Positions 1 to 22,812 of a DNA stretch of 22,812 nt are shown piece after piece. The DNA is taken from UHGV virus genome UHGV-0339689; one strand, given 5' to 3'. Both the position numbers and the translations under genes were made by a program. The notes under the pieces were generated by a model. It ran no database searches, was not told the DNA's origin, and worked only from the letters and a program-made list of their open reading frames with translations. This DNA is from a virus. Numbering within the stretch: the first letter of the stretch is position 1; each line of letters begins with the position of its first letter.

Positions 1-79
1 CTATTTCACTGAAGCCTGTTCCGTTCTTCCATAGTTCAAAAACAGAGGCTTTTTCCTCTGCTGTAAATGTTCGTCTCAT
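1..79 (-). CDS. insI: IS30 transposase, N-terminal fragment (runs off window edge)
   Basis: ATG at 79-77 on minus strand; translation MRRTFTAEEKASVFELWKNGTGFSEI matches remembered InsI N-terminus; ATGA overlap with preceding stop. Confidence 0.8.
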   Translation of the reverse strand, partial: MRRTFTAEEKASVFELWKNGTGFSEI

Positions 80-141
80 TCAAAAAACCTCCGCAACCCC
101 ATGTTTTCACATAACTGTTGCGTTGACCAATTGAATCTACA
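1..141 (-). mobile_element. IS30: IS30 insertion sequence, left end only (element continues beyond window start)
   Basis: Reverse complement of 1-141 reads TGTAGATTCAATTGGTCAACGCAACAGTTATGTGAAAACATGGGG..., which I recognise from memory as the IS30 terminal inverted repeat (about 116-141) plus the insI leader; phage coding sequence resumes at 142. Confidence 0.85.
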
Positions 142-456
142 CGTGCCTTCTTCGGCATTATGGTTCGCTTCGCCGTGCAGCCAGGCAGACGACAGTACAT
201 AGACCTGACCGTTCGCCAGCTCGGCAGTGATGGTCATCTCATCAGACGAGGTGATTTTGCTCACCGGAAAATTCTTCGGCACCTTGAAGGTCCCTTTGAC
301 ATAGGGCGCACGGTGAGTTTCCTTGCGGTCCACTGAACCGTCCAGGCCGATGATGTCATCATTGACCGTCCTGTTCATGGGCACCTCAATGCCGCCGGTC
401 AGCGATAGCTGCTGACCGTCAATTTTGAAATAACAGGTTCCCCCGATACGGGCCAT
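76..456 (-). CDS. Phage tail tube protein (Mu/SfV type), 3' end disrupted by IS30; only 142-456 is phage-derived
   Basis: 126-aa ORF directly downstream of the sheath gene (stop/start overlap at 456); last ~21 codons (79-141) are encoded by IS30 sequence, so the native C-terminus is lost. Confidence 0.65.
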   Translation of the reverse strand: MARIGGTCYFKIDGQQLSLTGGIEVPMNRTVNDDIIGLDGSVDRKETHRAPYVKGTFKVPKNFPVSKITSSDEMTITAELANGQVYVLSSAWLHGEANHNAEEGTCRFNWSTQQLCENMGLRRFFE

Positions 457-1952
457 TATGCAGACTCCTCTGAATACTGAAGACGGAACTGGTTAACCAC
501 GGCAAAGACACGCAACTGGTTAACATAGTCAGGCGGGAACAGCGTGTTCAGGCGGTTCGGATCGCTGGCATCACGCTCCACAACCAGGTACTGCTTAAAC
601 AGTTCGTAGTTTTCCACGATCCCCGCACGCTCAAGCTGACGGTAGGTTGCCAGCAGTTCCCCTTTGATCACCGCCGGGGTGACAATCGCCTGACCGGGAC
701 CAAAGCGGGTACCGTCACTGGCAAGCTTGTGACGCCCGTACTTACTGGTAATGACGGATTTCAGTTTGCGCAGTACATACGCGCTGGTATGCAGTGTCTC
801 ACTGTCGAGGTAGCTGTTATCCGCAACCCCGTAAGCGTTTTTCCTGTACGTGGTGACATCACGCTGAATGCGCAGTACCCCGCTTTCGACATACGCCGTT
901 GCCACGCCATGAGACAGCAGGGTCTGTTGTTCGGTCATCGTGAACCGTTTCCCCTTCGGCGCAGGCAGCATACCCACCAGCTCACCGGTCTGCGTGGGAC
1001 GTGCCGGATCGTTGCGAATAAACACCGCTGCGCGGGCGGTACGGCTTGCCGCCAGTTCGTCGGCAGGCGTCTGGGTCTCTTTTTCGTACCCCGCCAGGGT
1101 AATGTGCTGCTGGTTAAACTGGTCACCTGCGGTCACCAGTTCTGACAGCGTGCCGATCTTTGCCGTATACACATGACCATACAGCTGACGCGCATAGCTC
1201 CAGCGACCGCTGGTATCGTTCATCTCGGTCACCAGCGTGTTAACGGAGGCCGTGTCGTTGAACGGCAGGCCGATATAATCAAACGGCTCATCCGCCATTG
1301 CAGCCACCGCGCCGGTGAGAACCGGAGCACCCGTTCCGGCGGTACCCGTCGCCACGGCAATCTGTACGCCCGCTGGCAGCACTTCGCCCCCACCAAAGCC
1401 GTAGTAATTGAGGCTGACAGGAATTTCATTCCCGCAAAGCCCCTTATGACGCGCGGTCAGTGTGACCACACCTGCCGAAGATGAAGCCGTAAACGGCAGG
1501 GCCGGAACGGCATTGATGGCATCTTTGATACTGCTGGCAATCGTCGTGACGTTATCGCCGTTGGTCACCGGAGCCTGCACGCGGGTACGTCCCACATAGA
1601 CATTCACCGTGCCGCTTTCGGTTGCTTCCCCGGTCACCGTCAGCGTAACCGTTGCCGCCGCGCCTGTGGCTTCCGGAACGGCAATCACATACAGCTCACC
1701 AAACGGGTCGGTCTGGCGATAAGCCTCGACCATACGCGCCAGCTGACTTCCCGCACCACAAATCTGGCGTGCATAGTCTGCCGACGGCATCAGCACCAGA
1801 CTGTTGGCAACAATCTCTGCACCGTTACTGGCATGACCAATCAGCAGCGATGCTCCGCTGTCCTGTGCAGTATTCGCCGCCTGGTTATCCATTTCCGCAT
1901 AAAACAGCGGAACCAGCGTATTCGACGGAATGGTGTTAAAGCTTATCGTCAT
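456..1952 (-). CDS. Contractile tail sheath protein (Mu gpL-like)
   Basis: 498-aa ORF; size, position before tube gene and Thr/Gly/Val-rich composition typical of myovirus sheath; SD AAGGTG 7 nt upstream of ATG. Confidence 0.85.
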   Translation of the reverse strand: MTISFNTIPSNTLVPLFYAEMDNQAANTAQDSGASLLIGHASNGAEIVANSLVLMPSADYARQICGAGSQLARMVEAYRQTDPFGELYVIAVPEATGAAATVTLTVTGEATESGTVNVYVGRTRVQAPVTNGDNVTTIASSIKDAINAVPALPFTASSSAGVVTLTARHKGLCGNEIPVSLNYYGFGGGEVLPAGVQIAVATGTAGTGAPVLTGAVAAMADEPFDYIGLPFNDTASVNTLVTEMNDTSGRWSYARQLYGHVYTAKIGTLSELVTAGDQFNQQHITLAGYEKETQTPADELAASRTARAAVFIRNDPARPTQTGELVGMLPAPKGKRFTMTEQQTLLSHGVATAYVESGVLRIQRDVTTYRKNAYGVADNSYLDSETLHTSAYVLRKLKSVITSKYGRHKLASDGTRFGPGQAIVTPAVIKGELLATYRQLERAGIVENYELFKQYLVVERDASDPNRLNTLFPPDYVNQLRVFAVVNQFRLQYSEESA

Positions 1953-2106
1953 CGGTGTTCACCTTTTTATTCACGCGCCGGATATCACCCGCTGCTTCAC
2001 GGCGCAGCCAGTAGTTGTTCTCGTCAACATTTCGCCCTTCGGCGGGCAAAAGGTCGCTGCGGGCAGGGTCAGGCACTGACCGCCCTTTAACAGGTTTCAC
2101 AAACAT
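1936..2106 (-). CDS. Small hypothetical protein (56 aa), not in ORF track
   Basis: Hand translation MFVKPVKGRSVPDPARSDLLPAEGRNVDENNYWLRREAAGDIRRVNKKVNTDDDKL; SD formed by TGAGGA of upstream stop, 5 nt before ATG; overlaps sheath start by 17 nt. Confidence 0.35.
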   Translation of the reverse strand: MFVKPVKGRSVPDPARSDLLPAEGRNVDENNYWLRREAAGDIRRVNKKVNTDDDKL

Positions 2107-2114
2107 GAGGATCC

Positions 2115-2675
2115 TCAGGAAGGAATGGTTATTTCTGTGTGATGTTCGATATCGCCGTCAGGCCCGTTACCTGGATCGAGATAATCAACATCAATCGCCA
2201 GCGTTTGCAGTTCATCCAGACTGTTCAGATCATCCTGCTGGCGGGTATCGTCTTCAGTCAGCTCGCTGATGACCGAAAAATCGAACTGATAAATCAGCTC
2301 ATGACGATTCAGATCCAGCAGCGTGCCGCCGTCATAGGTAATCGGGTTACCGCACGCCTCCGGGTTCCAGCCCAGCAGAGCCTTAAAGAGCATCTGCCGG
2401 ACATCGTCCACCACATCATACGAGGCAAACTGACCGCGCTCATCACGCCCGTTACTCAGTATGACAACCACGGAGAAACCCTCTTTCAGCGCCTGCCAGT
2501 AGTCGGTCTGGCTTTTGTTTTCTCCCGGAGAATCATCACCCGGTACAACATATGCCGCCGGGAGTTTCAGCTTTCCGACCTCCGGCAGATTTTTGAACTG
2601 GGCCGCACCTGCAACCCGGTTTTCAAAATACGGACAGCGGGCACGCAGTGCAGCAATAACAGGCGTCAGTTTCAT
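2115..2675 (-). CDS. Phage virion protein of neck/tail-completion region (Mu gp37/DUF1834-like by position)
   Basis: 186-aa ORF in operon orientation between head-completion genes and sheath; overlapping stop/start with the upstream ORF (2672-3178). Confidence 0.6.
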   Translation of the reverse strand: MKLTPVIAALRARCPYFENRVAGAAQFKNLPEVGKLKLPAAYVVPGDDSPGENKSQTDYWQALKEGFSVVVILSNGRDERGQFASYDVVDDVRQMLFKALLGWNPEACGNPITYDGGTLLDLNRHELIYQFDFSVISELTEDDTRQQDDLNSLDELQTLAIDVDYLDPGNGPDGDIEHHTEITIPS

Positions 2676-3178
2676 CTGTGTCGTCGCTCCGGCTTCAGTG
2701 ATTTACGCAATTCCCGCGCCAGAAAATAGCGTGTCCAGCTGCGGTTCTTTTCAAGCGTTTCCATCATGAAGTTATTACGTGGAGCCAGTCGCCAGCCGCT
2801 GCCACCGGATGCACCACGATGATGGCTGCGACGACGCTTTGCCCCTCGCCTCACGCCATAGAACAAAAAAGCCGGATAAAAATCACCAGTGATACGGCGG
2901 TTTCCCTCTCCATTACGCTGGTTAGGGGCTATACGTGCCATAAAACCAGGGCGATGTTTACTGGCTCTGGGTACCATGTAACCAATCGAACGAGCCAGGC
3001 GTCCGGTCTGATAACCGGGGTTTTCACCCGGTGCCGACCGCGCACGGCGCATCACCAGCCGACGGGCATCACGCATATGACGCTGACCAATCGTGACAAA
3101 CGCCCGCCGGACACGGGCGCGGTTAAAGCGCATCTCCGTGGGCTGCTGAAAATCAACGTGCAAAAAGGAAGTCGCCAT
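2672..3178 (-). CDS. Basic phage morphogenesis protein (HK97 gp10-like / tail completion), start may be internal near 3133
   Basis: 168-aa Arg-rich ORF in operon orientation; overlaps upstream ORF by 26 nt if the first start is used. Confidence 0.5.
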   Translation of the reverse strand: MATSFLHVDFQQPTEMRFNRARVRRAFVTIGQRHMRDARRLVMRRARSAPGENPGYQTGRLARSIGYMVPRASKHRPGFMARIAPNQRNGEGNRRITGDFYPAFLFYGVRRGAKRRRSHHRGASGGSGWRLAPRNNFMMETLEKNRSWTRYFLARELRKSLKPERRHR

Positions 3179-3563
3179 TGCTGCCTCCGTGACTCTGCCT
3201 ACATTCGCCCAGCTCCGTACACTCCAGCAGCAGAAAGCGCCGCGCTCCGTTCAGATCGCGCTGACGTTTCACCCGGTACACACTGTCACCGCAGACCACC
3301 TCATAATCAGAGGTGATCCCCCGGCGGTAACGAATGGTGATGTAATGGGTGATGGCGTCTCCGGTCTGCGCGGTTTCCTGCCAGGTGGTGGCACTGGTCT
3401 GGATAACCTTCGCCCATGTACTGAACGCAACCGGGTATTGAGGCTCCACGCCAAAGTTATCTGCGGGCATATCCACCCGCTGGCGGATCAGGACGCGTTT
3501 ATTCAGTTCACCGGGGTCCGGCAGAATGTAGGTTGCGCTGGTCTGTGCCTGGCTAATTTTCAT
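3153..3563 (-). CDS. Head-tail adaptor / head closure protein
   Basis: 136-aa ORF following the gp6-like connector gene with 4-nt overlap; typical size and position. Confidence 0.6.
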   Translation of the reverse strand: MKISQAQTSATYILPDPGELNKRVLIRQRVDMPADNFGVEPQYPVAFSTWAKVIQTSATTWQETAQTGDAITHYITIRYRRGITSDYEVVCGDSVYRVKRQRDLNGARRFLLLECTELGECRQSHGGSNGDFLFAR

Positions 3564-3889
3564 TGCGGAAAGTACCTGTACGGGCTGACAAGCCAGCCAA
3601 AACTCTGCGGCATGTCGAGTTTCTCCACTTCCGTAACCGACGAGCGGTTTTCGTAAAAGTGGCTGATAAGCATCAGCATCCCAAGACGAATATCATCCGG
3701 CAGGTGCAGCCCGTCCGGATCGCTGTCCGGAATGGATTCATCCGGTGCATAGAGCTTCCGGTTCAGATACGTTTCCGTCCGCTTTTGCGCCGCACAGGCC
3801 AGCAGTTGCAGATGGCGGTCATCGGCATCGAAATCCTCATCCAGCCGGAGTTGGGCTTTAATCTCTTCCAGTGTCAGAAGCATTCTCAT
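3560..3889 (-). CDS. Head-tail connector protein (gp6-like)
   Basis: 109-aa acidic ORF MRMLLTLEEIKAQLRLDEDFDADD... with the usual position downstream of the major capsid gene. Confidence 0.7.
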   Translation of the reverse strand: MRMLLTLEEIKAQLRLDEDFDADDRHLQLLACAAQKRTETYLNRKLYAPDESIPDSDPDGLHLPDDIRLGMLMLISHFYENRSSVTEVEKLDMPQSFGWLVSPYRYFPQ

Positions 3890-4085
3890 CCCTCTTTACT
3901 GGCCGTGGCTTTTTCTCTTTTGCCGCTTTACTGCTTTTTGCACTGGTTCCGCGCTCTGCTAACCCGGCCTGAAGTGCAATCTCCTGCACCCGGGCAGGAA
4001 GCGCCCCGTCGTCATACTCACCGGCCCGAATGACCTCAACACGCATACCGTCCGGTGACCATTTAAGATCTTGTTTCAGGATCAT
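3858..4085 (-). CDS. Small hypothetical phage protein (75 aa)
   Basis: ORF starting 50 nt after capsid stop and after a GC hairpin; Lys/Ala-rich C-terminus. Confidence 0.4.
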   Translation of the reverse strand: MILKQDLKWSPDGMRVEVIRAGEYDDGALPARVQEIALQAGLAERGTSAKSSKAAKEKKPRPVKRDENASDTGRD

Positions 4086-4134
4086 GATTCTTCACCCTTC
4101 AGAACAGGGGGCGCGGAACCGCGCCCATGAGCGA

Positions 4135-5340
4135 TTACTTCTCTGCAATCTTCAGCAGTTTGATGGCCTGCGAATCGACCAGCATTCCGCCGGTGCGCTT
4201 GGTGGTATAAAAACCGACAAACGGTTTATTGGTGTACGGGTCACGCAGAATGCGGGTGCCGATACGGTCAACGATGGTGTAACCCCGTTTGAAGTTACCA
4301 AATGCGATGGCTTTCGCATCCGCAGCAATATCCGGCATCTGTTCGTTTTCAGCAATACCGTACCCCAGCAGAGAAGAAGGCTGCCCCAGTTCCAGCCCCG
4401 GACGCCACAGATAGTTACCCTCGTTGTCTTTCAACAGACGAATGGCAAACAGGCTGTTGTTGTTCATCATGAACTTCGCGCCAGTGCGGTGTGCCTTACG
4501 CAGCGTGTAAATCAGTTTGATAATGGCGTCTGCGGTCACCGCAGTCGCTTCGCCGGATACAATATGCTGAAGTTTGCCGAACGCCCGGACCTTATCGGTT
4601 TCATCAGTGGATTCATACGCCAGGAACCCTTTCGGCTTCTTGGTGCCATCGCCTGAGGTAAAGGCAATTTCTTCCTGTTCGGCAAATTCGGTTGCCAGCT
4701 CGCTGTTGATCCATGCTTCCACGTTGAAAAAGGCATCATCCAGCATTTTCTGGGTGGCCTGCGGGTTACCGTAGATTTCCCCCATGAAAGGTTCAATCAG
4801 GCCCAGTTTTGAGGTGGCAGTCTGGGAGCGCGCGTCAGTCTCGCCAACCCATCCGGAAGCCGTGCCGCCCAGATTCACCAGTTTTTTGTAGTCGGAACCA
4901 CCAATGGTGATCACCGTGGCTTCCTGACGCATCACCACTTCATCTTTCAGCAAGGTCAGAATGTTGCGATCCAGCGCTTCCGGCACGGCATAGCCGCCGT
5001 CTTCATCGGTGCCCACCTGTAATGCCTTGCGCTCCAGATCGCGCAGACCATCTTCACGGCCTTTACGCAGGAAGCCCACAAACGCTTCTTTATGCTCGGT
5101 GGTCAGTTTATTTTGCGCACCACCTGCCGGACGTTTCAGCTCAAGCAGCTCTTTTTCAAGATCGCTTTTGAGATTTTCCAGCTCGCTGAGTTTTCCGTTC
5201 AGGGTTTCCACCTGCCCGGCAAGTTTGCCTTTTTCCTGCTCAATCGCCTCAACGCGCTTGTCGTTCTTTGCTTTGAAGTCGTCAAACTTCTGCTGCAGCT
5301 CCTGCGCGACCTGTTCGACATCTTTAATATCAACCGCCAT
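4135..5340 (-). CDS. Major capsid protein, HK97 family
   Basis: 401-aa ORF with long N-terminal coiled-coil delta/scaffold-like domain (QELQQKFDDFKAKNDKRVEAIEQEKGKL...) then capsid domain; SD AGGAGA 6 nt upstream; follows protease gene. Confidence 0.9.
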   Translation of the reverse strand: MAVDIKDVEQVAQELQQKFDDFKAKNDKRVEAIEQEKGKLAGQVETLNGKLSELENLKSDLEKELLELKRPAGGAQNKLTTEHKEAFVGFLRKGREDGLRDLERKALQVGTDEDGGYAVPEALDRNILTLLKDEVVMRQEATVITIGGSDYKKLVNLGGTASGWVGETDARSQTATSKLGLIEPFMGEIYGNPQATQKMLDDAFFNVEAWINSELATEFAEQEEIAFTSGDGTKKPKGFLAYESTDETDKVRAFGKLQHIVSGEATAVTADAIIKLIYTLRKAHRTGAKFMMNNNSLFAIRLLKDNEGNYLWRPGLELGQPSSLLGYGIAENEQMPDIAADAKAIAFGNFKRGYTIVDRIGTRILRDPYTNKPFVGFYTTKRTGGMLVDSQAIKLLKIAEK

Positions 5341-5354
5341 CGTATTTCTCCTGA

Positions 5355-6041
5355 TTAGAAGTTCAGATTTTTCAGTGCATTCAGTGCAGAGCCCACATCC
5401 TCAGCGTCGCGCAGGGACAGTGCGCCATAGCCCCCGGCCATGAATGCTTTGGCCTGGGTACGGGAGAGTCCGACATCACGCAGGACTCTTTCGATTTTTT
5501 TCTGTTCGGGGATTTCCCCGCGGGCCAGTGCGTTCTTGACGTCGCTGATCCGCGCCTCGTCGTTAGACGGGAACGTCACCAGGCTGACTTCCCAGAGGTC
5601 GATTTCTTTCAGCAGAAAGGCTTCTTTGCTCCGGTCGTATTCCCAGTCTTTCAGGACGTACCCAATAGAAAGGCCGGTTAACGAACCGGCCTTCATGTGT
5701 GCATGTGCGCGTTTTGCGAGGGGATCATCATCAATAAGCAACCGTCCCCTGACGTAAAGCCCGACATCGTCTTCCTTCATTTCGGTGTAAACACCGATGG
5801 GTTCATCCATGCGGTGCTGCCAGAGCAGCGCAGGTAACGCTTTTCTGTCACTCCACGCCCGCAGGGAAGCAGCAAATGCCCCGGACATCACCACATCATC
5901 GTGGCTGTCCTTTACACCAAAGACGGAGCCATACCCTTCAAACTCACCGGAGTCACTGACAGATTTCAGACTCAGCGGTACATCAAGACGTTGTTTCGTC
6001 TGCATTGGCGTTATCCTTCTGCTTACCGGCTTTACTGCCAT
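5355..6041 (-). CDS. Prohead protease, HK97 family
   Basis: 228-aa ORF between portal and capsid; conserved gene order; start may be the internal ATG at 6005. Confidence 0.8.
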   Translation of the reverse strand: MAVKPVSRRITPMQTKQRLDVPLSLKSVSDSGEFEGYGSVFGVKDSHDDVVMSGAFAASLRAWSDRKALPALLWQHRMDEPIGVYTEMKEDDVGLYVRGRLLIDDDPLAKRAHAHMKAGSLTGLSIGYVLKDWEYDRSKEAFLLKEIDLWEVSLVTFPSNDEARISDVKNALARGEIPEQKKIERVLRDVGLSRTQAKAFMAGGYGALSLRDAEDVGSALNALKNLNF

Positions 6042-7224
6042 CGGAGGGTTTCGTGGTCATGTTCATCGGTGTGAGATAGACATCACCACCGGGTCGTGGA
6101 TTCATATCTTCCAGGTCGCGGCAGTCATTGGGAGAGTAAATTCCCCAGTTGATCCCGGTGGCGTAGGCTTCAAAACGGGACTTCATATCCCCGCGCAGTA
6201 ACGCCCCGGCGTTAAATTTGGCGTAATAAACGCCCTGCTTACTTTTTCGTACCAGTCCGGTGTTGATCCGCTGTTCGATGCGGGTCAGATACGGCACCAG
6301 TGAATAGTTGATAAATCCCAGCCCCAGCTCTTCGATATTGTTGAAGGTGGCGCGATCGGTGTTCTGCACCATGTGCAACGGCACCCGGAACAGACGACAG
6401 ATTTCTTCAAGCTGAAACTTGCGGGTTTCCAGGAACTGGCTGTCCTCGGCGTTCAGCGCCATCGACTTCCAGTCCAGCCCCATCTCAAGGATCATCGGGC
6501 GGTGAGCATTGCCAAGCCCGGTGTGACGCTCCTCAAAATCTTTCTTCAGGCGCTCATAAGCCTGATCTGACAGCGTCTGCTCTGTACGCAACACACCCGA
6601 CGTCACCGCGCCATTGCTGAACAGTCTGGCCCCGTGCTCTTCGGTCGCTGCCGCCAGCGATATTGCCTCGCGGGCATAGGCGATGGGATTCAGCCCCACC
6701 AGTCCGTCCAGCGTCAGCGTGCGCACATGCCAGATATCCTTCTGGCTCAGTACATCCGTGGAGCCATCCGGGAATGTGACCTGATAGACCGGCTCCCAGC
6801 TACTGTTAAGCTTCGGTACCACACAGCCGGGATCGACGGGCAGCAGTTCAGCCACTTCGCCAAATGCTTTCACTTTGTAGGCGTAAAAGTTTCCCCGCAG
6901 GCACAGACAGGTGACCACCAGCTCCCAGAACTCCTGCGGCGTCATATAGCCATTGGGATGCGTGGAGATCAGCTTATGCAGACGTTCGCCAGCGGCTCTC
7001 TGCTTCAGACTGCCGTTCAGGTGATACAGGTTGCAGGGCAACATCCCGACCGACTCCGCCAGCACCCTGACACAGGAAAAAACCGCCGTCAGTCGCATGG
7101 CCCGCTGGCTGCTGATCTGCTTTCCGGTATAGGTGTCGTAGGACAACCCGATAGCATCCGCCAGCTCTGCTGGCGTGGTCACCGGTGCGTCACTTTTTCG
7201 TTGAAATAATCCCGAAAAGAACAC
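5983..7224 (-). CDS. Portal protein, HK97 family
   Basis: 413-aa ORF downstream of terminase large subunit; size and order typical. Confidence 0.9.
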   Translation of the reverse strand: MFFSGLFQRKSDAPVTTPAELADAIGLSYDTYTGKQISSQRAMRLTAVFSCVRVLAESVGMLPCNLYHLNGSLKQRAAGERLHKLISTHPNGYMTPQEFWELVVTCLCLRGNFYAYKVKAFGEVAELLPVDPGCVVPKLNSSWEPVYQVTFPDGSTDVLSQKDIWHVRTLTLDGLVGLNPIAYAREAISLAAATEEHGARLFSNGAVTSGVLRTEQTLSDQAYERLKKDFEERHTGLGNAHRPMILEMGLDWKSMALNAEDSQFLETRKFQLEEICRLFRVPLHMVQNTDRATFNNIEELGLGFINYSLVPYLTRIEQRINTGLVRKSKQGVYYAKFNAGALLRGDMKSRFEAYATGINWGIYSPNDCRDLEDMNPRPGGDVYLTPMNMTTKPSDGSKAGKQKDNANADETTS

Positions 7225-7406
7225 TATTTACCTCCGCCGACAGACGACTGTGTACGGTCGAGATATCGCGCCACCAGCCACGACCAGAACAGACACAACG
7301 CCCCGGCAACAACAAACCCCGCCGGGGGATAAATCAGCCAGGCACCATACGCCAGCAAAAGCGCCCCCAGCACGCCCACCAGAGGCGCGAGAATCAGCAT
7401 GATCAT
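7224..7406 (-). CDS. Small two-helix membrane protein (60 aa)
   Basis: [49 protein letters not shown]...; two hydrophobic segments; stop overlaps portal start. Confidence 0.45.
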
Positions 7407-7417
7407 AATTACCTCAG

Positions 7418-9151
7418 TTAAAGCGAGCGGATCCCATAGGACTCAATGTGGTCAGACAGCGTGTCTTCTTTCTCGTACAGCATGGCTCTGCCAACCGCCA
7501 TAATCAGCGCAACTGCACCATCGATTTTGTTTTCCGCCTGCTCTTTGACGGGCTTCACTAAATCATCGTTACCCGGAATGGTTTTGCCGACCACATTGCC
7601 GATACACCAGGTCATGATGGGATTGCCGTCATGATGAAAGCGTCCCGATTCAATCGCTGCCTCCAGCTCTTTCATCGGGTCGGACATATTGGCGAAGTTC
7701 TGGACGATAGTAACGGGATTCAGGTCTTCATCAGCAAGGTCATGTGACAGCCCGGTCGCTCCGAAAGGGTCGATGGGTGACTCACTGACCGGGCTGATTT
7801 TGTTCGCCGCTTTGGCCTCTTCGAGGATGTAGCGATAATCCACCTCTGCACCATCGGTAACGGTCAGAACGCCCATTTCCACCCATTTCTGAAAGCGTTC
7901 GGCTGTCCGGCGATCTTCATTTTTCTCGACGCTGTACACCGTGTCATACGGTACCCAGAAACGCGGGGCCACACTGTAGTAATGCGTTTTACCGTCAATC
8001 TCGCGGGTATAAAGTCGCGCCATGCTGTTCATATCCAGCTTACGCGCCAGGTCAAAGGCCAGAATGCACGGCTGCCCCTCGAACTGCTCAAGAGTCAGTG
8101 ATTTATCCTCGCAGCTCTGCCAGCTCACCAGGTTGAAATACGCCGAACGCGCCGACACCCAGATATTGAGGTGTTTTGTTTTAAAGACGTTTGCCAGACG
8201 GGCGTTATTTTTCGCACGCTGCTGCTGACTTAACAAAAATTCGCGATAAACCGACACGCCAATATTTGGATTGGCTTTTTCCAGCACCTGCGGGTCGGTC
8301 CAGTCGTCACCTTCATCAACGGTATAGATGATCCCGAACAGTTCATCGTTAGGCACCGAGCCGTTGAGCATCTCGATGACTTCCCGCCGCTTGTCGTAGC
8401 ACGGCCCCTCAATGTTGTACCCGGCGGTGGTGATGGCCCACATCAGTGGCTGACGTCGCGCCCCCATCCCGGTAAGCATTGTGGTATAAAGCGCATCGGT
8501 GGCATGCTCGTGATATTCATCAACCACGGCACAGTGGGGTGATGAACCATCACCTGGGTTGCCGATCAGCGGTTCAAACCGCGCGCCATCCTCCGGACGG
8601 TTCATGTTTGAGGCGTTAACCTCAATCCCGAACGCTTCCGTCAGCATGGGTGTGCGTTTACACATCAGTCGCGCCGGGCGAAAGACTTCCCACGCCTGTT
8701 TCTCTGTCGTGGCACCGGAATACACTTCCGCGCCAAACTCGTTATCACAGGCAAAACAATACAGGGCAACACCGGCAGAGATTGCTGATTTGCCGTTCTT
8801 ACGGGGGATTTCGGTGTACACCTCCCGGAAGCGGCGCAACCGGGTGCCTTTATTGACCCAGCCAAACGCACAGCAGATCACAAATAGCTGCCACGGCTCC
8901 AGCGTGATGGGCATCCGTTTGAATGCCCACTCCCCCTTGGTGTGCGGCAACAGCTGAATAAATTTCGCGGCCCGTTCAGCCAGGTCCTTGTCGAAGCGGT
9001 AACGAAACGACTTACTTTTTTCCGCCATCAGGTCATCAAGATGGCGCTGGCAGGCCTGAATCACAAACTGGCAGGCAACAATCTTTCCGCGCACGACATC
9101 CCGGGCATACTGATTTGCAGCATTTACGTTGGGGTAAGATTTCCGGCTCAT
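7418..9151 (-). CDS. Terminase large subunit
   Basis: 577-aa ORF; ATGA overlap with small subunit stop; ATPase and nuclease-type size and order. Confidence 0.9.
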
Positions 9152-9642
9152 GATTCGATGATTTTCAGAAACGGGTTAGTGGCTTTCTTCTTCCCCGCCA
9201 GGCCAATCAGACGCTGGCGGCTGCTGGGGTCGAGTCCGAGCATTGCCCCCGTACTGCTCATCTCGGACTCCTGTTCTTTTTTGGCAGTCAGCTCCGGATT
9301 TTTGACCATACCGCCCATTGCACCGGTGATGGTGTTGCCCTGTCTGGCAATATTTTTCACGGCACGTCGCCAGAACTCGTAGGCCACGCACCACCGCTCA
9401 AGCACCGCAAGGTCAGTCACGCACAGCAGGCCCTGACCGCAGAGTTCTTTAGTTGTCAGTTGCCACATGATCGTAGCGAGAGGGAGATCTTCTTCAGCGA
9501 ACCACTCCGGTGGCTCAACACCTTTGATGGGCGTAAAAACAGGTTCATCTTTATTCAGGGCTCGCTTGCCGGGGTTTCCGGCCAGCGCCTTGCGCGCCGT
9601 TGGCTTGGGGCGACGCCCGGAACGCCCCGCCGTTCCAGCCAT
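9148..9642 (-). CDS. Terminase small subunit (P27-family-like)
   Basis: Track ORF 9148-9651 begins at GTG; the ATG at 9642 ([14 protein letters not shown]...) has SD AGGAG 8 nt upstream and is the likelier start. Confidence 0.8.
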
Positions 9643-9679
9643 ATGCGGCACTCCTGGTTAAATTTCATTTTTCGCGGGT

Positions 9680-9760
9680 ATAAAAAAACGATGGGGCGGG
9701 CAGTCCGGAAGACGTCAGGTCACAGAGATTTGACCCGCCCCTCCCCTCAGACAGTTGAGA
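9680..9760. other. Candidate cos site / packaging initiation region
   Basis: GC-rich nested inverted repeats GGGGCGGG (9693-9700) / CCCGCCCC (9734-9741) around GACGTC and GGTCA..TGACC, in the gap between HNH and terminase small genes. Confidence 0.35.
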
Positions 9761-9767
9761 ATTATTA

Positions 9768-10118
9768 TCACTTAAGTCGTTCACGGGCCGTCTTCGCCTT
9801 ATGACACGGCCAGCACAGACTCTGCAGATTACAGTCGGCATCAGTGCCGCCATGCGCTTTAGGGATGATGTGGTCAACGGTTTTCGCCTCACGCACCACA
9901 CCAGCACGCAGACATAACTGACACAGGCCTTTGTCACGCTTCAGGACACCCGCGCGGATACTGTCCCACTTCGAACCATAACCGCGCTGATGACGGGATT
10001 GTCCTGGCTTGTATTGCTTCCAGCCCTCGCTTTTGTGGCTTTCGCAATAGCCTGACGGATCAGTCGTGGTATTGCGGCAACCGCGAAAACGGCAGGCTTT
10101 TGGGGTTCGTGGTGGCAT
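9768..10118 (-). CDS. HNH endonuclease (packaging-associated)
   Basis: 116-aa ORF with Cys-rich zinc-finger pairs and HNH-like core (CQLC...DHIIPKAHGG...CWPCH); immediately upstream of terminase. Confidence 0.85.
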   Translation of the reverse strand: MPPRTPKACRFRGCRNTTTDPSGYCESHKSEGWKQYKPGQSRHQRGYGSKWDSIRAGVLKRDKGLCQLCLRAGVVREAKTVDHIIPKAHGGTDADCNLQSLCWPCHKAKTARERLK

Positions 10119-10284: not shown

Positions 10285-10509
10285 TTATTCTTTGCTGATT
10301 GCTTTCTGAATGGCATCGGCTAATGGTTCAATTAAGCCAATAGCTGCTTTTAATTCCTGTTCAAATTTTGCACTTGTAGCCTGACCACCTGCAGAAGAAA
10401 GTGAGGCCTTAACTAATTCAAGGGCAGCTTGAACAGCTATAACCCTCTGTTTTTGAGCTTGAGTTACAGGCTGAGCACCTATTCCTGAAGGGAAATAATT
10501 CTCTAACAT
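10285..10509 (-). CDS. Small Ala-rich hypothetical protein (74 aa), lower-GC moron
   Basis: SD GGAGGT 4 nt upstream of ATG; own terminator about 110 nt downstream; 267-bp AT-rich gap upstream. Confidence 0.5.
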   Translation of the reverse strand: MLENYFPSGIGAQPVTQAQKQRVIAVQAALELVKASLSSAGGQATSAKFEQELKAAIGLIEPLADAIQKAISKE

Positions 10510-10776
10510 TACAACCTCCGTATTAAAAAGTGAGGTTACACATTACCCTTAAGATTACTCTTAGTGAAGAGGTATCTCATAATTATCACCCTTACCAATA
10601 ACGCTTGATGAAATTTGTAATGGACTGGCTCTTATTTCAACGCAACCACTTACCGCGCGCCAGATGCTTAACCTCAAACATTAGCAATGAGATGTTTAAT
10701 CTGAATCCACTCCAGAAGTAATCACCACTCTGTCTACAGGGCCTGATGTGAAGGATGATGAGTAAAATTATCGCTA

Positions 10777-11238
10777 TCATCGAAGGCATTGCGTCCTGAT
10801 GTACTCCTGCAGGTAGTTAACCTGTGCGGTTATCCTGTCGATTCCACTTCGGAGACGGTAATAATTGAGTTCAGCATCTGCTGTAAGTCCTGGGCTTTCT
10901 CCATCGCCCATGCCGCTGGCTCTGGTCGTTGATTTTGCACAGGTGGCGGCGACTTGCAGGCGCTTACGCCCAGAAGAAACATCAGCACGGAGACTTTCGA
11001 TAGTCGCGTTAGCATCAGCAAGCTCCTTTGTGTATCTGGCGTCAAGTTCTGCTACGTCACGTTGACGCTTCTGCATATCAGAGATAGTCGCCATAGCCGA
11101 ATCTAATGCCATAGCATTCTCATCACGCTGCTTTTTGTATTCGATGGCTTTGCTGTGGTAATAATTTGCTGAACAGATAAAAGAACCAATGACAGTAACG
11201 AAGAATGCAGCGATAACCAGCTTATAGCTCAACTTCAT
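10777..11238 (-). CDS. Rz: Rz-type i-spanin
   Basis: 153 aa; N-terminal TM then coiled coil; strongly resembles remembered lambda Rz (QRDENA...DMQKRQRDVAELDARYTKELADA...). Confidence 0.85.
   Translation of the reverse strand: MKLSYKLVIAAFFVTVIGSFICSANYYHSKAIEYKKQRDENAMALDSAMATISDMQKRQRDVAELDARYTKELADANATIESLRADVSSGRKRLQVAATCAKSTTRASGMGDGESPGLTADAELNYYRLRSGIDRITAQVNYLQEYIRTQCLR
10830..11015 (-). CDS. Rz1: Rz1-type o-spanin lipoprotein embedded in Rz (+1 frame)
   Basis: MLTRLSKVSVLMFLLGVSAC lipobox signal then Pro-rich KSPPPVQNQRPEPAAW; SD AAGGAG 7 nt upstream of ATG at 11015; track ORF extends to a TTG at 11045. Confidence 0.65.
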   Translation of the reverse strand: MLTRLSKVSVLMFLLGVSACKSPPPVQNQRPEPAAWAMEKAQDLQQMLNSIITVSEVESTG

Positions 11239-11698
11239 TTACCACCCCGCCAGCCTCTTTGAATCGGGCAATCAGGTCACCGATTTTATGTTCATACTGA
11301 CCGTAACCAGCGCCCGGCAGTGAAGCCCAGATATTGCTGCAACGATCGATAGCCTGACGAATATCGCCGCGATCAATCATCGGTAAAGCGCCACGCTCTT
11401 TAATCTGCTGCAATGCCACAGCATCCTGGCTTTTTGGAGAGAAGTCTTTCAGCCCAAGCTGCTTGCGGTAAGCATCCCACCAGCGTGAAAGAAGTTGATA
11501 ACGGCCTGCAGCTGTTGATTTGAGTTTGGGGTTTAGCGTGACAAGTTTGCGAGGGTGATCGGAGTAATCAGTGAAGAGTTCACCACCGACAATAATATCA
11601 TAACCGTGGTTACGTGTCGGTTGTCGCCCGTTATCCGTTCCTTCTGACCATGCCACCATATCGAGGAAAGCTTTACGCTGAGGATTAAGATTTTGCAT
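11222..11698 (-). CDS. R: Endolysin, lambda R-type lytic transglycosylase
   Basis: 158 aa; near-identical over long stretches to remembered lambda R (NQRKAFLDM.AWSEGTDNGRQ.TRNHGYD.IVGGELFTDYSDHPRKLVTLNPKLKST). Confidence 0.9.
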   Translation of the reverse strand: MQNLNPQRKAFLDMVAWSEGTDNGRQPTRNHGYDIIVGGELFTDYSDHPRKLVTLNPKLKSTAAGRYQLLSRWWDAYRKQLGLKDFSPKSQDAVALQQIKERGALPMIDRGDIRQAIDRCSNIWASLPGAGYGQYEHKIGDLIARFKEAGGVVNEVEL

Positions 11699-12141: not shown

Positions 12142-12477
12142 TTATTTTACATCCCAAGGTAGTTCCTCAAGAGAGAAGACTAATTCATTATCAATGATTT
12201 CGTATTCTGCATAACCTTCAACCTCTCCTGAGAAGTTATTGTCAACGCATCCTTCATAATAGCTATATGGTGCTATAAAGTGAAACCCATATTCATCTAT
12301 CTCTGTGATTTCAAAATTGTAGTAATCGTAAGAATATCGAATATCATCATCAGAAATAGAACTAAGTACATAGTTATTAAATTTATCGGAATGCTTAACG
12401 ATAAGCTCTGACAACGCGTCAAGATTCTCTGGAGAGATATTTCCTAACGGTAATCTGTACTCAACGGCATTAATCAT
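12142..12477 (-). CDS. Acidic Tyr-rich hypothetical protein (111 aa), low-GC late-region moron
   Basis: SD AGGAGG 4 nt upstream of ATG; about 24 Asp+Glu versus 5 Lys+Arg; no hydrophobic segment; sits between tR' and the holin. Confidence 0.7.
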   Translation of the reverse strand: MINAVEYRLPLGNISPENLDALSELIVKHSDKFNNYVLSSISDDDIRYSYDYYNFEITEIDEYGFHFIAPYSYYEGCVDNNFSGEVEGYAEYEIIDNELVFSLEELPWDVK

Positions 12478-12662: not shown

Positions 12663-13415
12663 TTATCTCGTCACCTTTCTCAATTGCGTTTCAGCATATG
12701 CTTCTTCCTGCCAGCACTTTGTTACTAGTTTATCAATTACGTCTGCATATCCTTTGTACCACTGATAATCAGTCAGGTCTGGAACCAGCTTCTGGACATG
12801 ACGTCGTGCCAGTGTAGTTGGTAAACGGCTAAACCGGTTTCCATTGCAACGCCCACAAATCTTATAAACAGGCGTGCCATGAAGCCGGGTCCTTTTTTCA
12901 TCCAGGACAATACCTTTACCCTTACACCCTCTGCACGCTGTGCTGACTTCTCCCTTACCATGACAATGCTGACATAGTTCCTTCACCCACTCTTCCTTGA
13001 TAACAGATTCCCCGCTTCTGGAGTGTTTCACCACCTCGCGCAATACATTATGAAATCCAGTACCAGCACAATGCTCACAGCGAGCCTTACTTGCCGCAGA
13101 CCTGGAATAATCAGCAAAGGCAAAATTCACAAGGTAAGGAATGATCTGTAGCCGGGTTTCTTCACTCAATTTATTCAATGTCGGGTTATCCAGTGCCATC
13201 GCGTAATTGAGCAGACCTTCAATCGCAAACTGAGGATCCTGAACACCAACTTTTGCCAGGAATAAGGCAAACCCAAGCGGTGCTTTCGACTGCACCATCC
13301 CCTGCGCAGCCATCACATCCGTAATCGTTAAACCACCAGAGCCTGTCGCCGGTGCGTCATCGCTCAGTTTTGGAGATTTCGGGGAGTAATATTTCGGTAA
13401 GGCTTCAAGGTTCAT
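12663..13415 (-). CDS. Q: Late-gene antitermination protein Q (phage 82/21-type, zinc-binding)
   Basis: 250 aa with Cys clusters (CEHCAGTG, CQHCHGKG, CRGCKGKG, CGRCNG); positioned immediately upstream of PR'/tR' and lysis cassette. Confidence 0.8.
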   Translation of the reverse strand: MNLEALPKYYSPKSPKLSDDAPATGSGGLTITDVMAAQGMVQSKAPLGFALFLAKVGVQDPQFAIEGLLNYAMALDNPTLNKLSEETRLQIIPYLVNFAFADYSRSAASKARCEHCAGTGFHNVLREVVKHSRSGESVIKEEWVKELCQHCHGKGEVSTACRGCKGKGIVLDEKRTRLHGTPVYKICGRCNGNRFSRLPTTLARRHVQKLVPDLTDYQWYKGYADVIDKLVTKCWQEEAYAETQLRKVTR

Positions 13416-15242: not shown

Positions 15243-15632
15243 TCAGGCGGCTGCACCCGCCGTTTTCTCGTACTTACTGATAGTGATCTCGACCTTCCCT
15301 TCCGGGATAACCGGTCCCCACTCCACCAGCATTCTTTTCACCTGACTGTCGTCTTCCCACACACCCGCGTGGGTCAGGGCGTCAAACAGCGCCTTGTTAT
15401 AGTTGTCCAGATCGCGGATCCGGTTATCCGGAGGAAACAACACGATCTCCACTGAAGCAGGTGCCGACGTTGGTTTTGGCAGACGACGTAACTGCTCAAC
15501 TATTGCTGCACACGCCGCGCTCTGGAATTTGCGCCCCGCCGCGCTTATCAGGCTCTTACCTGCAAACGCCCCTTTGTTGGGGTGTCGCCAGTACGTGTTC
15601 ACGCTGGGCGGGAAAGGCAGAATCAGCTTCAT
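15243..15632 (-). CDS. rusA: RusA-family Holliday junction resolvase
   Basis: 129 aa; MKLILPFPPSVNTYW... and DLDNYNKALFDALTHAGVWEDDSQV motifs typical of RusA. Confidence 0.85.
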   Translation of the reverse strand: MKLILPFPPSVNTYWRHPNKGAFAGKSLISAAGRKFQSAACAAIVEQLRRLPKPTSAPASVEIVLFPPDNRIRDLDNYNKALFDALTHAGVWEDDSQVKRMLVEWGPVIPEGKVEITISKYEKTAGAAA

Positions 15633-15955
15633 ACTTTCAGACCCCTCTCATGTAACCAGTGGGCTGCACGCAGCCTGGCGTTTTCCTCACCGGCAAGCAG
15701 TGAGCGGATAATCCCGACCGCCTCGCTGTCGTCGTCCTTCACCGCGGTATGAAGCGTTATCCCCCGGGCCACACCACGCTTTATCGTGATGACGCCTTTT
15801 TTCTCCAGTGCGCGAAGATGCTCCACCGCTGCATTCACTGAACGATATCCCAGCATGGTTGCCACCTCCTGATTGGTTGGCGGAAAGCCACGCTCTTTCT
15901 GGTAAGAAATCAGCATATCCAGCACCTGCTGCTGGCATTGAGTTAACGTCGTCAT
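15629..15955 (-). CDS. LexA N-terminal DNA-binding-domain protein (no peptidase domain)
   Basis: 108 aa; QQVLDMLISYQKERGFPPTNQEVATMLGYRSVNAAVEHLRALEKKGVI closely parallels the remembered LexA winged-helix domain. Confidence 0.8.
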   Translation of the reverse strand: MTTLTQCQQQVLDMLISYQKERGFPPTNQEVATMLGYRSVNAAVEHLRALEKKGVITIKRGVARGITLHTAVKDDDSEAVGIIRSLLAGEENARLRAAHWLHERGLKV

Positions 15956-19273: not shown

Positions 19274-19948
19274 ATGAAAACAATCCATGACATCCGGCGG
19301 TCTAACGCCAGAAAACTGAGAGATGGTGTTGGCGGGAATTCTTCCTTTGCCACTATGATTGATCGCGAGCCAACCCAGACCAGCAGGTTTATGGGAGATG
19401 GTGCTACTAAAAATATCGGTGACAGCATGGCACGACACATCGAAAAATGTTTCGACCTGCCTGTCGGATGGCTCGATCAAGAACACCAGACAACGAACAT
19501 CACAAAAAAACCTGATGTTTCAATCACTAATAAACAAATCACATTAGTCCCTGTCATATCATGGGTACAGGCCGGAGCATGGAAAGAAGTTGGATATTCT
19601 GAGGTTGATTTGAGCACAGCAGAAACGTATCCCTGCCCTGTCCCCTGTGGGGAAATGACTTATATCTTGCGGGTGATAGGTGATTCAATGATTGATGAGT
19701 ACCGCCCGGGAGACATGATTTTTGTCGATCCTGAAGTACCTGCCTGCCACGGTGACGACGTTATTGCATTGATGCACGATACAGGTGAAACCACCTTCAA
19801 AAGGTTGATAGAAGATGGGACACAGCGTTATCTCAAAGCGTTAAACCCAAACTGGCCTGAGCCTTACATTAAGATCAACGGTAATTGCTCTATAATTGGT
19901 ACAGTGATTTTCTCAGGAAAACCAAGAAGATACAAAATCAAAGCCTAA
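19274..19948 (+). CDS. cI: CI-type repressor with S24 (LexA-like) autopeptidase domain
   Basis: 224 aa; Ala-Gly site (VQAGAW), catalytic Ser in GDSM and Lys in TFKRL; divergent from cro. Confidence 0.85.
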   Translation: MKTIHDIRRSNARKLRDGVGGNSSFATMIDREPTQTSRFMGDGATKNIGDSMARHIEKCFDLPVGWLDQEHQTTNITKKPDVSITNKQITLVPVISWVQAGAWKEVGYSEVDLSTAETYPCPVPCGEMTYILRVIGDSMIDEYRPGDMIFVDPEVPACHGDDVIALMHDTGETTFKRLIEDGTQRYLKALNPNWPEPYIKINGNCSIIGTVIFSGKPRRYKIKA

Positions 19949-20437: not shown

Positions 20438-21034
20438 ATGGATTGGCATGACCTTATATCAAAGGTAATTATCGGACTTGTTACAGGCTCAATCGCAGCT
20501 TACTTAACTGCGCGATATGCACTCGGCCGTTATTATAAAGAAAAATGGTGGGACAAAAGAATAGATTTGTATACGCAATTAGTTGACTGTGTTTATCTTC
20601 TAAAAAACACAGCTGACTATTGGTATAAACATGAGTTACATCACGCTTCACAATTCCCAACCTACTTTAGTTACAAATCAAAAGAAGAAAATGAAATCCT
20701 TAGCAAATCTTTCTCTAATGAGCTTGAAAAACTCAGTAGAATAGGTGAGCTATCTTCATTATTCTTAACAGAAGAGTGTGGGGATAAAATCCGTTCATTC
20801 ATTGAAAATGAAGAAAATCTATTTATACAATGGGAGTTTGATAGTATAGAGTTGATAGATGCCCACAAGTCAAGACTTGATAAATTAAAAGTATTACTAG
20901 ACGATATTATCTCTGAAGCAAAGAGAGAGCTTAAGGTCAATAAAAAACATAACAGCCTAAAGAATATAAAGTGGTCCATAACTATGCCAGACCAAAAAAA
21001 TGATGAGCCAATTAATTATTACGACAATCATTAA
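20438..21034 (+). CDS. Hypothetical membrane-anchored protein (198 aa), low-GC moron; candidate phage-exclusion/defence effector
   Basis: SD AGGAAA 7 nt upstream; N-terminal TM helix (ISKVIIGLVTGSIAAYLTARYAL) then charged Lys/Glu/Asn-rich soluble domain; flanked by terminators; GC clearly below flanks by eye. Confidence 0.75.
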   Translation: MDWHDLISKVIIGLVTGSIAAYLTARYALGRYYKEKWWDKRIDLYTQLVDCVYLLKNTADYWYKHELHHASQFPTYFSYKSKEENEILSKSFSNELEKLSRIGELSSLFLTEECGDKIRSFIENEENLFIQWEFDSIELIDAHKSRLDKLKVLLDDIISEAKRELKVNKKHNSLKNIKWSITMPDQKNDEPINYYDNH

Positions 21035-21456: not shown

Positions 21457-21993
21457 ATGAGTTTTATCCAGACTCTTACCGGTAAGAAGTTCAATTATAT
21501 CAACTCCACCATTGACGATATTTATATCGAGGATATCGCCGGTGCGCTTTCAAATATCTGCCGCTTCGCGGGACACTTGCCGGATTTTTACAGCGTGGCG
21601 CAGCATTCCGTTCTGTGCAGTCAACTTGTGGCGCCAGAGTTCGCCTTTGAAGCGTTAATGCATGATGCAACAGAAGCGTATTGTCAGGACATCCCCGCGC
21701 AACTGAAACGCCTTCTTCCTGACTATAAACGGATGGAAGAAAAAATAGACGCCGTAATCCGTGAGAAATACGGGTTACCCCCGGTTATGAGCACGCCCGT
21801 GAAATATGCCGATCTCATCATGCTGGCAACCGAACGCCGCGATCTCGGGCTTGATGATGGCTCTTTCTGGCCTCTACTGGAAGGTATCCCAGCAACAGAG
21901 ATGTTCAAAGTTATTCCACTGTCGCCAGGCCATGCCTACGGGATGTTTATGGAACGTTTTAACGAGTTATCGGAGTTACGCAAATGCGCATGA
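21457..21993 (+). CDS. yfdR: HD-domain phosphohydrolase, YfdR-like (5'-deoxynucleotidase family)
   Basis: 178 aa; HD motif (ALMHDATEAYCQD); SD AAGGAGA 7 nt upstream; resembles remembered CPS-53 YfdR. Confidence 0.7.
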   Translation: MSFIQTLTGKKFNYINSTIDDIYIEDIAGALSNICRFAGHLPDFYSVAQHSVLCSQLVAPEFAFEALMHDATEAYCQDIPAQLKRLLPDYKRMEEKIDAVIREKYGLPPVMSTPVKYADLIMLATERRDLGLDDGSFWPLLEGIPATEMFKVIPLSPGHAYGMFMERFNELSELRKCA

Positions 21994-22346
21994 ATGTTTT
22001 CGAAATGGAAGGGTTTCTTCGCGGGAAATGTGTACCGCGAGATCTGAAAGTGAATGAAACGGATGCTGAATACCTGGTGCGTAAATTCGATGCGCTTGAA
22101 GCTAAATGTGCGGCACTGGAAAACAAAGTAATACCAGTGTCAACTGAACTGCCACCAGCAAATGAAAGTGTTTTGTTATTCGATGCTAACGGAGAAGGCT
22201 GGCTAATTGGCTGGCGTTCTCTCTGGTACACCTGGGGACAAAAAGAAACCGGAGACTGGCAGTGGACATTTCAGGTCGGGGACCTTGAAAACGTCAATAT
22301 CACTCACTGGGCAGTAATGCCAAAAGCACCGGAGGCTGGAGCATAA
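21984..22346 (+). CDS. yfdS: DUF551-type prophage protein, YfdS-like
   Basis: 120 aa; Trp-rich C-terminal domain (GWLIGWRSLWYTWGQKETGDWQWTF); overlaps yfdR-like stop. Confidence 0.6.
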   Translation: MRMNVFEMEGFLRGKCVPRDLKVNETDAEYLVRKFDALEAKCAALENKVIPVSTELPPANESVLLFDANGEGWLIGWRSLWYTWGQKETGDWQWTFQVGDLENVNITHWAVMPKAPEAGA

Positions 22347-22651
22347 TGACCACTTTTACCGACAAAGAACTGATTAAAGAAATCAAAGAGCGTATCAGCA
22401 GCCTTGACGTGCGAGACGATATTGAGCGCCGTGCTTATGAAATCGCACTCCTATCTCTGGAAGTAGAGCCAGATGAACGCGAATCCTATGAATTATTTAT
22501 GGAAAAACGTTTCGGTGGCTTAGTAGATAGTCGGAGAGCAAAAAACGGCGATAACGAATACATGGCATGGGATATGACTCTCGGTTGGATCGTCTGGCAA
22601 CAACGAGCTGGCATTCATTTTTCAACAATATCACAGCAAGAGGTGAAATAA
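22346..22651 (+). CDS. yfdT: Hypothetical prophage protein, YfdT-like
   Basis: 101 aa; ATGA overlap with preceding gene. Confidence 0.55.
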   Translation: MTTFTDKELIKEIKERISSLDVRDDIERRAYEIALLSLEVEPDERESYELFMEKRFGGLVDSRRAKNGDNEYMAWDMTLGWIVWQQRAGIHFSTISQQEVK

Positions 22652-22812
22652 TGGAACCATACAGCCTCACGCTAAATAGCTGCGCGGAATAGTAGATCAC
22701 TGAAAGGGAACTCAGCCCGGATTGTGCGATCTGATCAATCGCCAAACCAACCAAAATCACCAACCGGACTGAGCGATGCCGATCATAGTACCAATACCCC
22801 GTGGCGAACGAC

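Follow-up and report, generated by a model that had tools for sequence, protein, structure and literature searches.

An IS30 element of the standard kind has inserted, with duplication of the 2-bp target CG, into the tail tube gene of an SfV-like Escherichia coli prophage, which we analysed over a stretch of 22,812 nucleotides (the window). In the window contig, an excisionase-like gene has been split by a second element, ISEc33. The prophage could still escape repression on SOS induction, replicate and lyse its host; efficient excision and infectious tailed particles would probably not be achieved, and the element may represent an early stage of becoming cryptic. As a whole, this explanation, in which a recent IS30 insertion at a recurrently used site and an ISEc33 hit yield an inducible prophage that probably makes no infectious tailed particles, is likely to be correct. 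Mechanistically, IS30 has transposed in its ordinary way into a preferred target, and IS-driven prophage decay is a well-known kind of event.

The host prophage belongs with the SfV-like myophages, as the initial annotation of the window had proposed from the letters alone: tube and sheath are 97.8-99.2% identical to those of SfV, SfIV, SfII and SfI. The whole morphogenesis module is ~97-99% identical to that of SfV-like phages (Shigella SfV, SfIV, SfII and SfI; Escherichia vB_EcoM-689R6 and 720R4) and has the same order, running from HNH, TerS, TerL, portal, protease and capsid to a Mu-type contractile tail. The head and neck morphogenesis and packaging genes (1936..10118, minus strand) encode a DUF2635 protein, tail terminator, head closure protein, connector, capsid, protease, portal, TerL, TerS and an HNH protein. 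All are full length, with the same lengths as in the chromosome OZ038676.1 (locus L003) and in an IS-free twin of the prophage, LR536430.1.

The window also encodes a lambdoid early and late control region with an S24 cI-type repressor, a Cro-like HTH protein, a CII-like protein, a replication protein, a Dam methylase, RusA, a KilA-N protein, a DUF968 protein and a Q antiterminator. The SfV-like myophages likewise have a lambdoid early region with an S24-type cI and a Q antiterminator. The cI-like repressor gene (19274..19948, plus strand) encodes a complete S24 (LexA-type) autopeptidase (PF00717, positions 1-116 of 116, E = 1.5e-26) and is annotated as ymfK, LexA family, in LR536430.1. Rfam and tRNA scans found no RNA genes in the window. 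The twin sits at tRNA-Thr (thrW) beside proA, and the attachment site lies outside the window. In its element the tube gene is normal, at 118 aa, the tail module is full, and xis and int are present. Unlike the SfV-like phages, the E. coli twin lacks gtr genes for O-antigen modification in the interval from int to the tRNA, and compared with the Shigella phages the early and lysis modules of this prophage are mosaic. A further difference from the SfV-like phages is that the tube and xis genes are interrupted here.

The left end of IS30 occupies positions 1..141 (minus strand) of the window. The best listed matches to this segment are identical at 141/141 positions (E = 6e-67), and, of 5,426 complete E. 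coli genomes, 3,539 contain IS30 copies that match it (reverse strand). The complete IS30 in OZ038676.1, 1221 bp long, begins with the same 141 letters. From 141 downwards, the segment holds the left terminal inverted repeat, a 62-nt leader and the first 26 codons of insI, whose ATG is at 79..77 (minus strand), and the window ends 141 nt into the element. Translation of 79..1 gives MRRTFTAEEKASVFELWKNGTGFSEI, which is the N-terminus of the IS30 transposase.

The tube reading frame continues into the element as a chimeric ORF of 126 aa (76..456, minus strand), identified from the ORF list, by alignment and by Pfam PF10618. It consists of native codons 1-105 (456..142), IS30-derived codons 106-126 (141..79), which read CRFNWSTQQLCENMGLRRFFE, and a stop at 78..76. 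When the window is aligned to the tube genes of SfIV and E. coli AMSHJX01, both intact, near-identity extends to 142 and no similarity remains from 141 on. The insertion point is thus the boundary 141/142, between codons 105 and 106 of a 118-codon gene. Matches to IS-free genomes that start from window position 135 give the appearance of a 7-bp overlap between the IS30 end and its target; this is a gapped BLAST extension, and the alignment breaks at 141/142. The CG dinucleotide at 142..143 is the target-site duplication of IS30, as seen when the junctions in OZ038676.1 are compared with the empty site.

The tube stop TGA (78..76) shares bases with the insI ATG (79..77). The initial annotation had described this ATGA overlap, an IS30 end at 141 inside the tube frame and a tube ORF ending in about 21 IS30-derived codons; all three descriptions agree with the alignment, and the codon count is exactly 21. 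Intact tube homologues do not end at the chimeric residue: nearly all among the 120 matches listed are 118 aa long, neither 105 nor 126. The ATGA overlap is a by-product of the IS30 end sequence falling in the tube frame. It could lead to some coupling of transposase translation to late-gene expression, and there is no sign of selection for it. A fusion of one of the entering frames to the IS30 transposase was also considered and is ruled out, since all three frames that enter the IS30 left end hit a stop before or at the insI ATG.

The right IS30 junction falls outside the window and is seen in OZ038676.1, a complete 4.95-Mb chromosome that is among the public assemblies in which the chimeric protein is recorded. 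Locus L003 of this chromosome is 100% identical to the window across the 10.4 kb they have in common. Its full IS30 (L003 positions 10316-11536, 1221 bp) differs by 1-3 nt from two other E. coli copies and encodes the transposase as a single intact ORF of 383 aa with PF13936 HTH_38 and PF00665 rve domains. The ends of the element are imperfect terminal inverted repeats, TGTAGATTCAATTGGTCAACGCAACA versus TGTAGATTCAATCTGTCAATGCAACA. The locus reads GGCACG, then IS30, then CGGTTGATC, with CG on both flanks, and the empty site is GGCACGGTTGATC, also given as GGCACGGTTG. Beyond the right end of IS30 lie the displaced last 13 tube codons (VDLEFHGEEGDYQ) and a stop. A full tail set follows, comprising the assembly chaperone, tape measure, DNA-circularisation protein, baseplate and fibre genes, all of full length. 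The initial annotation had recommended a search beyond the far IS30 end for the remainder of the tube gene and a 2-bp duplication. Both are present in this chromosome, which indicates a simple insertion with neither deletion nor rearrangement.

The IS30 copy in this allele is apparently active and is a standard element. E. coli IS30 has the same 1221-bp length, the same 383-aa HTH and DDE (rve) transposase, imperfect inverted repeats of ~26 bp and a 2-bp duplication. The element here is no different, and its location alone is particular.

IS30 is oriented in the same direction as the phage late operon. Directly upstream of the tube gene is an intact tail sheath gene (456..1952, minus strand, 498 aa), assigned by its Pfam sheath domains and by the annotation of SfIV and of the E. 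coli twin. In intact phages the tube stop and the start of the following chaperone gene overlap (TAATG). The insertion would deprive the chaperone gene of translational coupling to tube termination and place it 1.2 kb further along the transcript. The 39-bp tube remnant that now precedes the chaperone gene still has a Shine-Dalgarno-like sequence, GAAGGGG. Late transcription is presumed to be driven by the Q-type antiterminator (12663..13415, minus strand, 250 aa; PF03589 Antiterm, E = 3.8e-54) and must now cross IS30. A simple consensus scan found no intrinsic terminators in IS30 on either strand; together with Q antitermination, this suggests that the tail genes downstream may experience little polarity. 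Terminators and polarity of IS30 were reportedly described by Dalrymple and Arber in 1986.

The insertion is predicted to remove the conserved C-terminal β-hairpin of the tube protein (VDLEFHGEEGDYQ) and to add 21 unrelated residues. The last two predicted β-strands consist of the 13 residues that are replaced, which include five near-invariant positions: E109, F110, H111, G115 and Q118 are each at least 90% conserved among 28 sequences of 69-100% identity. In the window allele, residues 106-118 are IS30-encoded and the hairpin with its EFH..G..Q motif is absent, making the protein a disrupted member of its family. Both the 118-aa length and the EFH..G..Q motif are almost invariant in enterobacterial and Aeromonas homologues, which points to strong purifying selection on exactly the residues that IS30 replaces.

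Structure prediction places these residues in an ordered part of the intact protein. The AlphaFold model of the 118-aa protein has a pLDDT of 84.8, and residues 105-111 and 114-117 form the last two strands with a pLDDT of ~90. The model aligns well with the tail tube protein gp40 of phage Mu (9khy, 9ki1 and 9lj8; Foldseek E = 6.5e-8, TM 0.82), with an rmsd of 1.9-2.5 Å over 113-116 alignment columns that include the C-terminal strands. Mu gp40 is likewise a β-sandwich tube subunit of 118 aa encoded right after the sheath gene, although its sequence identity with the tube protein here is 16-17% and a sequence-only search between the two gave no significant match (E = 0.67). The Mu tube is built from such β-sandwich subunits, whose hexamer forms a 24-stranded barrel (PMC11915804).

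In the chimera model, the pLDDT is lower, at 76.8, and the pTM is 0.65 instead of 0.74. The last strand is gone, residues 118-126 are disordered, and the added disordered tail measures 9 to 14 residues. Tube function is probably lost or severely reduced in the 126-aa chimera, which would most likely be unable to build a normal hexameric tube. The tail defect proposed in the initial annotation is plausible.

An alternative is that the 126-aa tube is functional, or partly so, and that the insertion is near-neutral for virion assembly, leaving a prophage that is infective at least without ISEc33. Several observations favor this reading. The IS-derived segment CRFNWST retains the hydrophobic/polar alternation of the lost strand VDLEFHG and so mimics its amphipathic pattern, and AlphaFold still predicts a strand at residues 105-112 of the chimera, with a pLDDT of ~85 over residues 101-110. 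This part of the model may be biased, because MAFFT aligned the C-termini of the homologues to the chimera. The Pfam Tail_tube score drops by just 6.6 bits, from 114.9 for the intact protein to 108.3 for the chimera (E = 2.8e-31; cut-off 23 bits), and profile positions 1-115 of 117 are still aligned. The tail genes downstream of IS30 are intact in OZ038676.1, and SfIV, a viable phage, itself bears IS elements, so an extra 1.2 kb need not block packaging. Against it stand the near-invariance of the replaced residues and of the protein length, and the missing final strand and disordered tail of the chimera model. Furthermore, the allele occurs in none of 12 deposited phage genomes with this tube gene and in none of ~1,080 complete E. 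coli genomes that carry a prophage of this type, and further IS insertions and a deletion accumulate in relatives of the allele. We consider a functional chimeric tube unlikely.

The same IS30 junction occurs in three haplotypes, represented by (a) the window together with L003, L004, L005 and L009, (b) L006 and (c) L007. Across the neighboring 2.2 kb, 24-33 SNPs separate the haplotypes, and some of these SNPs lie 73 and 109 bp from the junction. Each haplotype has an IS-free twin among complete genomes that is 99.9-100% identical over 2.5 kb. A further allele is seen at the protein level. P0007 (WP_137490251.1), a 123-aa 'tail tube protein' of the same cluster, ends in CRFNLSMQHPFQLSLSVF; its 18 residues are exactly those obtained in silico from an IS30 inserted at this position but facing the other way. 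Its backbone also has the substitution S66N. The P0007 allele is beyond the reach of recombination and thus indicates at least one further independent insertion at the same dinucleotide.

These observations lead us to favor, with some reserve, the view that the tube genes of SfV-like prophages have a natural IS30 hot spot at codon 105/106, struck repeatedly and in either orientation across different lineages of E. coli, and that IS30 would act as a site-directed, recurrent inactivator of this widespread family. The opposing view is that a single forward-orientation IS30 insertion spread to three backgrounds by homologous recombination between related prophages. Mosaic structure and frequent recombination are features of SfV-like prophages, the forward-orientation junctions are all identical to the base, and the crude half-site motif described below is so common in the prophage that sequence alone does not single out the tube site. 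Such a spread, however, needs two separate crossovers in short intervals, given the background-distinguishing SNPs at 73 and 109 bp, and every junction background has its own near-identical IS-free twin. Nor can recombination produce the opposite-orientation allele, and the preference of IS30 for particular hot-spot sequences is already known (PMC9333248). Spread of one insertion by recombination is quite improbable.

The tube site, AAGAAGGC, resembles other IS30 targets in its left half. Its left flank, AAGAAGGCAcg up to the point of insertion, fits a half-site AAAAARGC(N3) that also ends at the insertion point and is common to the flanks of five other independent IS30 insertions. The motif is empirical and derives from six sites including the tube site. 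Of these other five sites, four belong to different IS3-family orfA genes and one to a P2-like gpD gene of O157:H7. The right half of the tube site is weakly symmetric to the left, and the outer AAGA/TCTT positions alone pair. With 111 occurrences of the crude motif in the 34.8-kb prophage, the half-site is too degenerate to explain the choice of site alone. Reading the site as a hot spot, it shares with known IS30 hot spots the independent repeat insertion at one dinucleotide, the use of both orientations, the 2-bp staggered cut and a phage DNA target. We found no description of IS30 insertion at this tube site in the literature searched.

At its other end the window carries the left end of a second element, the IS630-family ISEc33 (22675..22812, plus strand). 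Its transposase ATG is near 22775, and the window ends 138 nt into the element. Positions 22670-22812 are identical to ISEc33 copies at 143/143 positions. The full element is present at the same junction in OZ038676.1 (L023:2830-3982), where it measures 1153 bp, is flanked by a TA duplication and encodes a 343-aa DDE_3 transposase.

ISEc33 interrupts an excisionase-like HTH_17 gene, the 5' remnant of which occupies 22567..22674 (plus strand); the sequence diverges from all IS-free twins after 22674. The target is the TA of a CTAG in the intact gene, which is located upstream of int. The cut falls after codon 36 of the annotated 144-codon ORF, equivalent to codon 8 from an internal ATG at 22652. 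The intact gene (L010:35926-36360) has the PF12728 HTH_17 domain at residues 34-64, and the homolog in SfIV is annotated as excisionase, gp29. No protein record exists for the truncated 41-aa xis ORF, and the junction was confirmed through the neighboring 101-aa gene.

The position of ISEc33 bears on the intactness of the prophage. Outside the tube gene, the initial annotation had regarded the prophage as intact. This stands for the cI, replication, lysis and head genes, which are full length, and fails for the excisionase-like gene, which ISEc33 splits. The prophage is thus probably excision-impaired as well as tube-impaired.

That both IS ends are chimeric assembly joins at repeats rather than real insertions has virtually no chance of being right: the window extends into IS30 by 141 nt and into ISEc33 by 138 nt plus a shared CTA (=141), as a k = 141 de Bruijn assembler gives at repeats, and ENA contig names carry k141, but OZ038676.1 has both insertions in full, each with its duplication (CG and TA) and a displaced gene remnant beyond it, the IS30 junction also appears in independent NCBI, ENA and JGI assemblies from other assemblers, and a contig that ends within a repeat is the expected behavior at a true junction. 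Loci L003 and L023 effectively refute the artefact reading.

The IS30 insertion is recent, because the window otherwise matches IS-free prophages letter for letter: positions 142-22674 are 100.0% identical to the prophages in LR536430.1, 0H26, CX21 and CAVP776. The chimeric protein was found on 22 contigs in one look-up and in 45 index blocks in another. Its presence in many samples indicates a successful host lineage and says nothing on phage function. The exact IS30 junction was found neither in GTDB species representatives nor in IMG/VR viral contigs, and complete RefSeq E. coli genomes contain neither this IS30 junction, in either orientation, nor the ISEc33 junction. The target site is present in ~20% of complete E. 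coli genomes. A scan of JGI metagenomes for the exact IS30 junction found one more contig, of the same haplotype as the window.

Relatives of the allele are at different stages of decay. In OZ038676.1, a third IS (IS3 family) separates the ORFs of 198 and 178 aa, and the window is without it. A 4.6-kb stretch running from the portal gene to the DUF2635 gene is deleted in one metagenome contig that has the IS30 allele. The 38-kb contig L004 reaches more than 36 kb upstream of the tube gene; its extent, the sole basis for this stage, implies one with IS30 only. IS-inactivated cryptic prophages of E. coli and Shigella show the same stepwise IS insertions and deletions in structural and recombination genes. 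Compared with those, the prophage here is at a very early stage, the remaining 22.5 kb of the window being identical to IS-free copies.

If the hot spot is real, the nested series that leads from IS30 only to the addition of ISEc33 in xis and then to a third IS or a head-gene deletion would be a real-time record of IS-driven domestication. Repeated use of one dinucleotide by IS30 would add a natural hot spot, located in a prophage that is common in E. coli, and the tube site could serve as a marker of lineage or of IS30 activity. The current understanding of IS elements and of prophage decay is unchanged by these findings.

The two elements also matter for how such prophages are scored. The tail genes, int and att lie beyond the IS elements and both contig ends are in repeats, which affects any judgement of intactness made from the window. 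Annotation pipelines label the 126-aa chimera a normal 'phage tail tube protein', and prophage-completeness tools would thus score the element as intact despite two disabling insertions.

The right end of the window lies within a second insertion sequence. The left end of ISEc33, an IS630-family element, occupies window 22675-22812 and has entered an excisionase-like HTH_17 gene at CTAG, leaving the 5' part of that gene at 22567-22674. At the same junction in the complete E. coli chromosome OZ038676.1, ISEc33 is entire and is accompanied by a TA duplication. The window ends (1-141 and 22672-22812) each consist of 141 bases of sequence shared with other repeat copies. A 141-base repeat overlap at both ends is the signature of a de Bruijn assembly with k = 141, and the window is probably one whole contig bounded by two IS elements.

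OZ038676.1 carries the same IS30 and ISEc33 insertions as the window, as well as a third IS that is absent from the window. This IS3-family element (L023, a locus of that chromosome, 366-1581) encodes ORFs of 87 and 276 aa and is flanked by early-left ORFs of 198 and 178 aa, at a position equivalent to approximately window 21430.

IS30 was also found at other sites in loci L011-L016, which represent E. coli O157:H7 TR01, SK1144, E2863 and 720632 and plasmids p120899_146 and p602354_148. Here, it resides in various IS3-family orfA genes at a homologous position encoding 'EILKKA' (ATATTAAAAAARGC), and also inside a P2-like gpD gene, following GAAAAAGGCACT. The half-site AAAAARGC(N3) is common to the tail tube site, the IS3-family orfA sites and the P2-like gpD site.

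Database homologues of the tail tube gene (window 76-456) include many more altered alleles, for example P0016, P0017, P0019, P0020, P0031, P0067 and P0108. One kind has an IS66-type transposase fragment fused at the N-terminus; others read through at the C-terminus into unrelated sequence or have ends that are frameshifted (…GITSNERA). Either the tube gene is frequently broken by other routes or it is frequently mis-assembled.

The IS30-bearing locus L005 (ENA ERZ27301871 k141_9437) has a 4.6-kb deletion equivalent to window 2172-6816, whose joint shows microhomology of 4 nt. Lost with it are the portal gene's C-terminal two-thirds and the genes for protease, capsid, connector, head closure and tail terminator. 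This could be genuine further decay or else mis-assembly.

A short reading frame lying between the genes for the capsid and the head-tail connector (window 3858-4085, minus strand) encodes 75 aa in the window and in L003 of OZ038676.1, versus 66 aa in the two further IS30 haplotypes, L006 and L007. Its counterpart in LR536430.1, the genome with the IS-free twin prophage, is labelled 'frameshifted' by PGAP. The minus strand at 15629-15955, flanked by the genes for Dam methylase and RusA, encodes a 108-aa protein made up solely of the DNA-binding domain of LexA (PF01726, E = 2.9e-19), the S24 peptidase part being absent. Such a protein would act as a LexA-like DNA binder that cannot be cleaved. 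Conserved prophage ORFs at 20438-21034, 21457-21993 and 22346-22651 (plus strand) and 12142-12477 and 10285-10509 (minus strand) had no match in Pfam. The 178-aa ORF is annotated by PGAP as an 'HD family hydrolase' in the twin, and its homologue in the related Shigella phage SfIV as a dNMP phosphatase.
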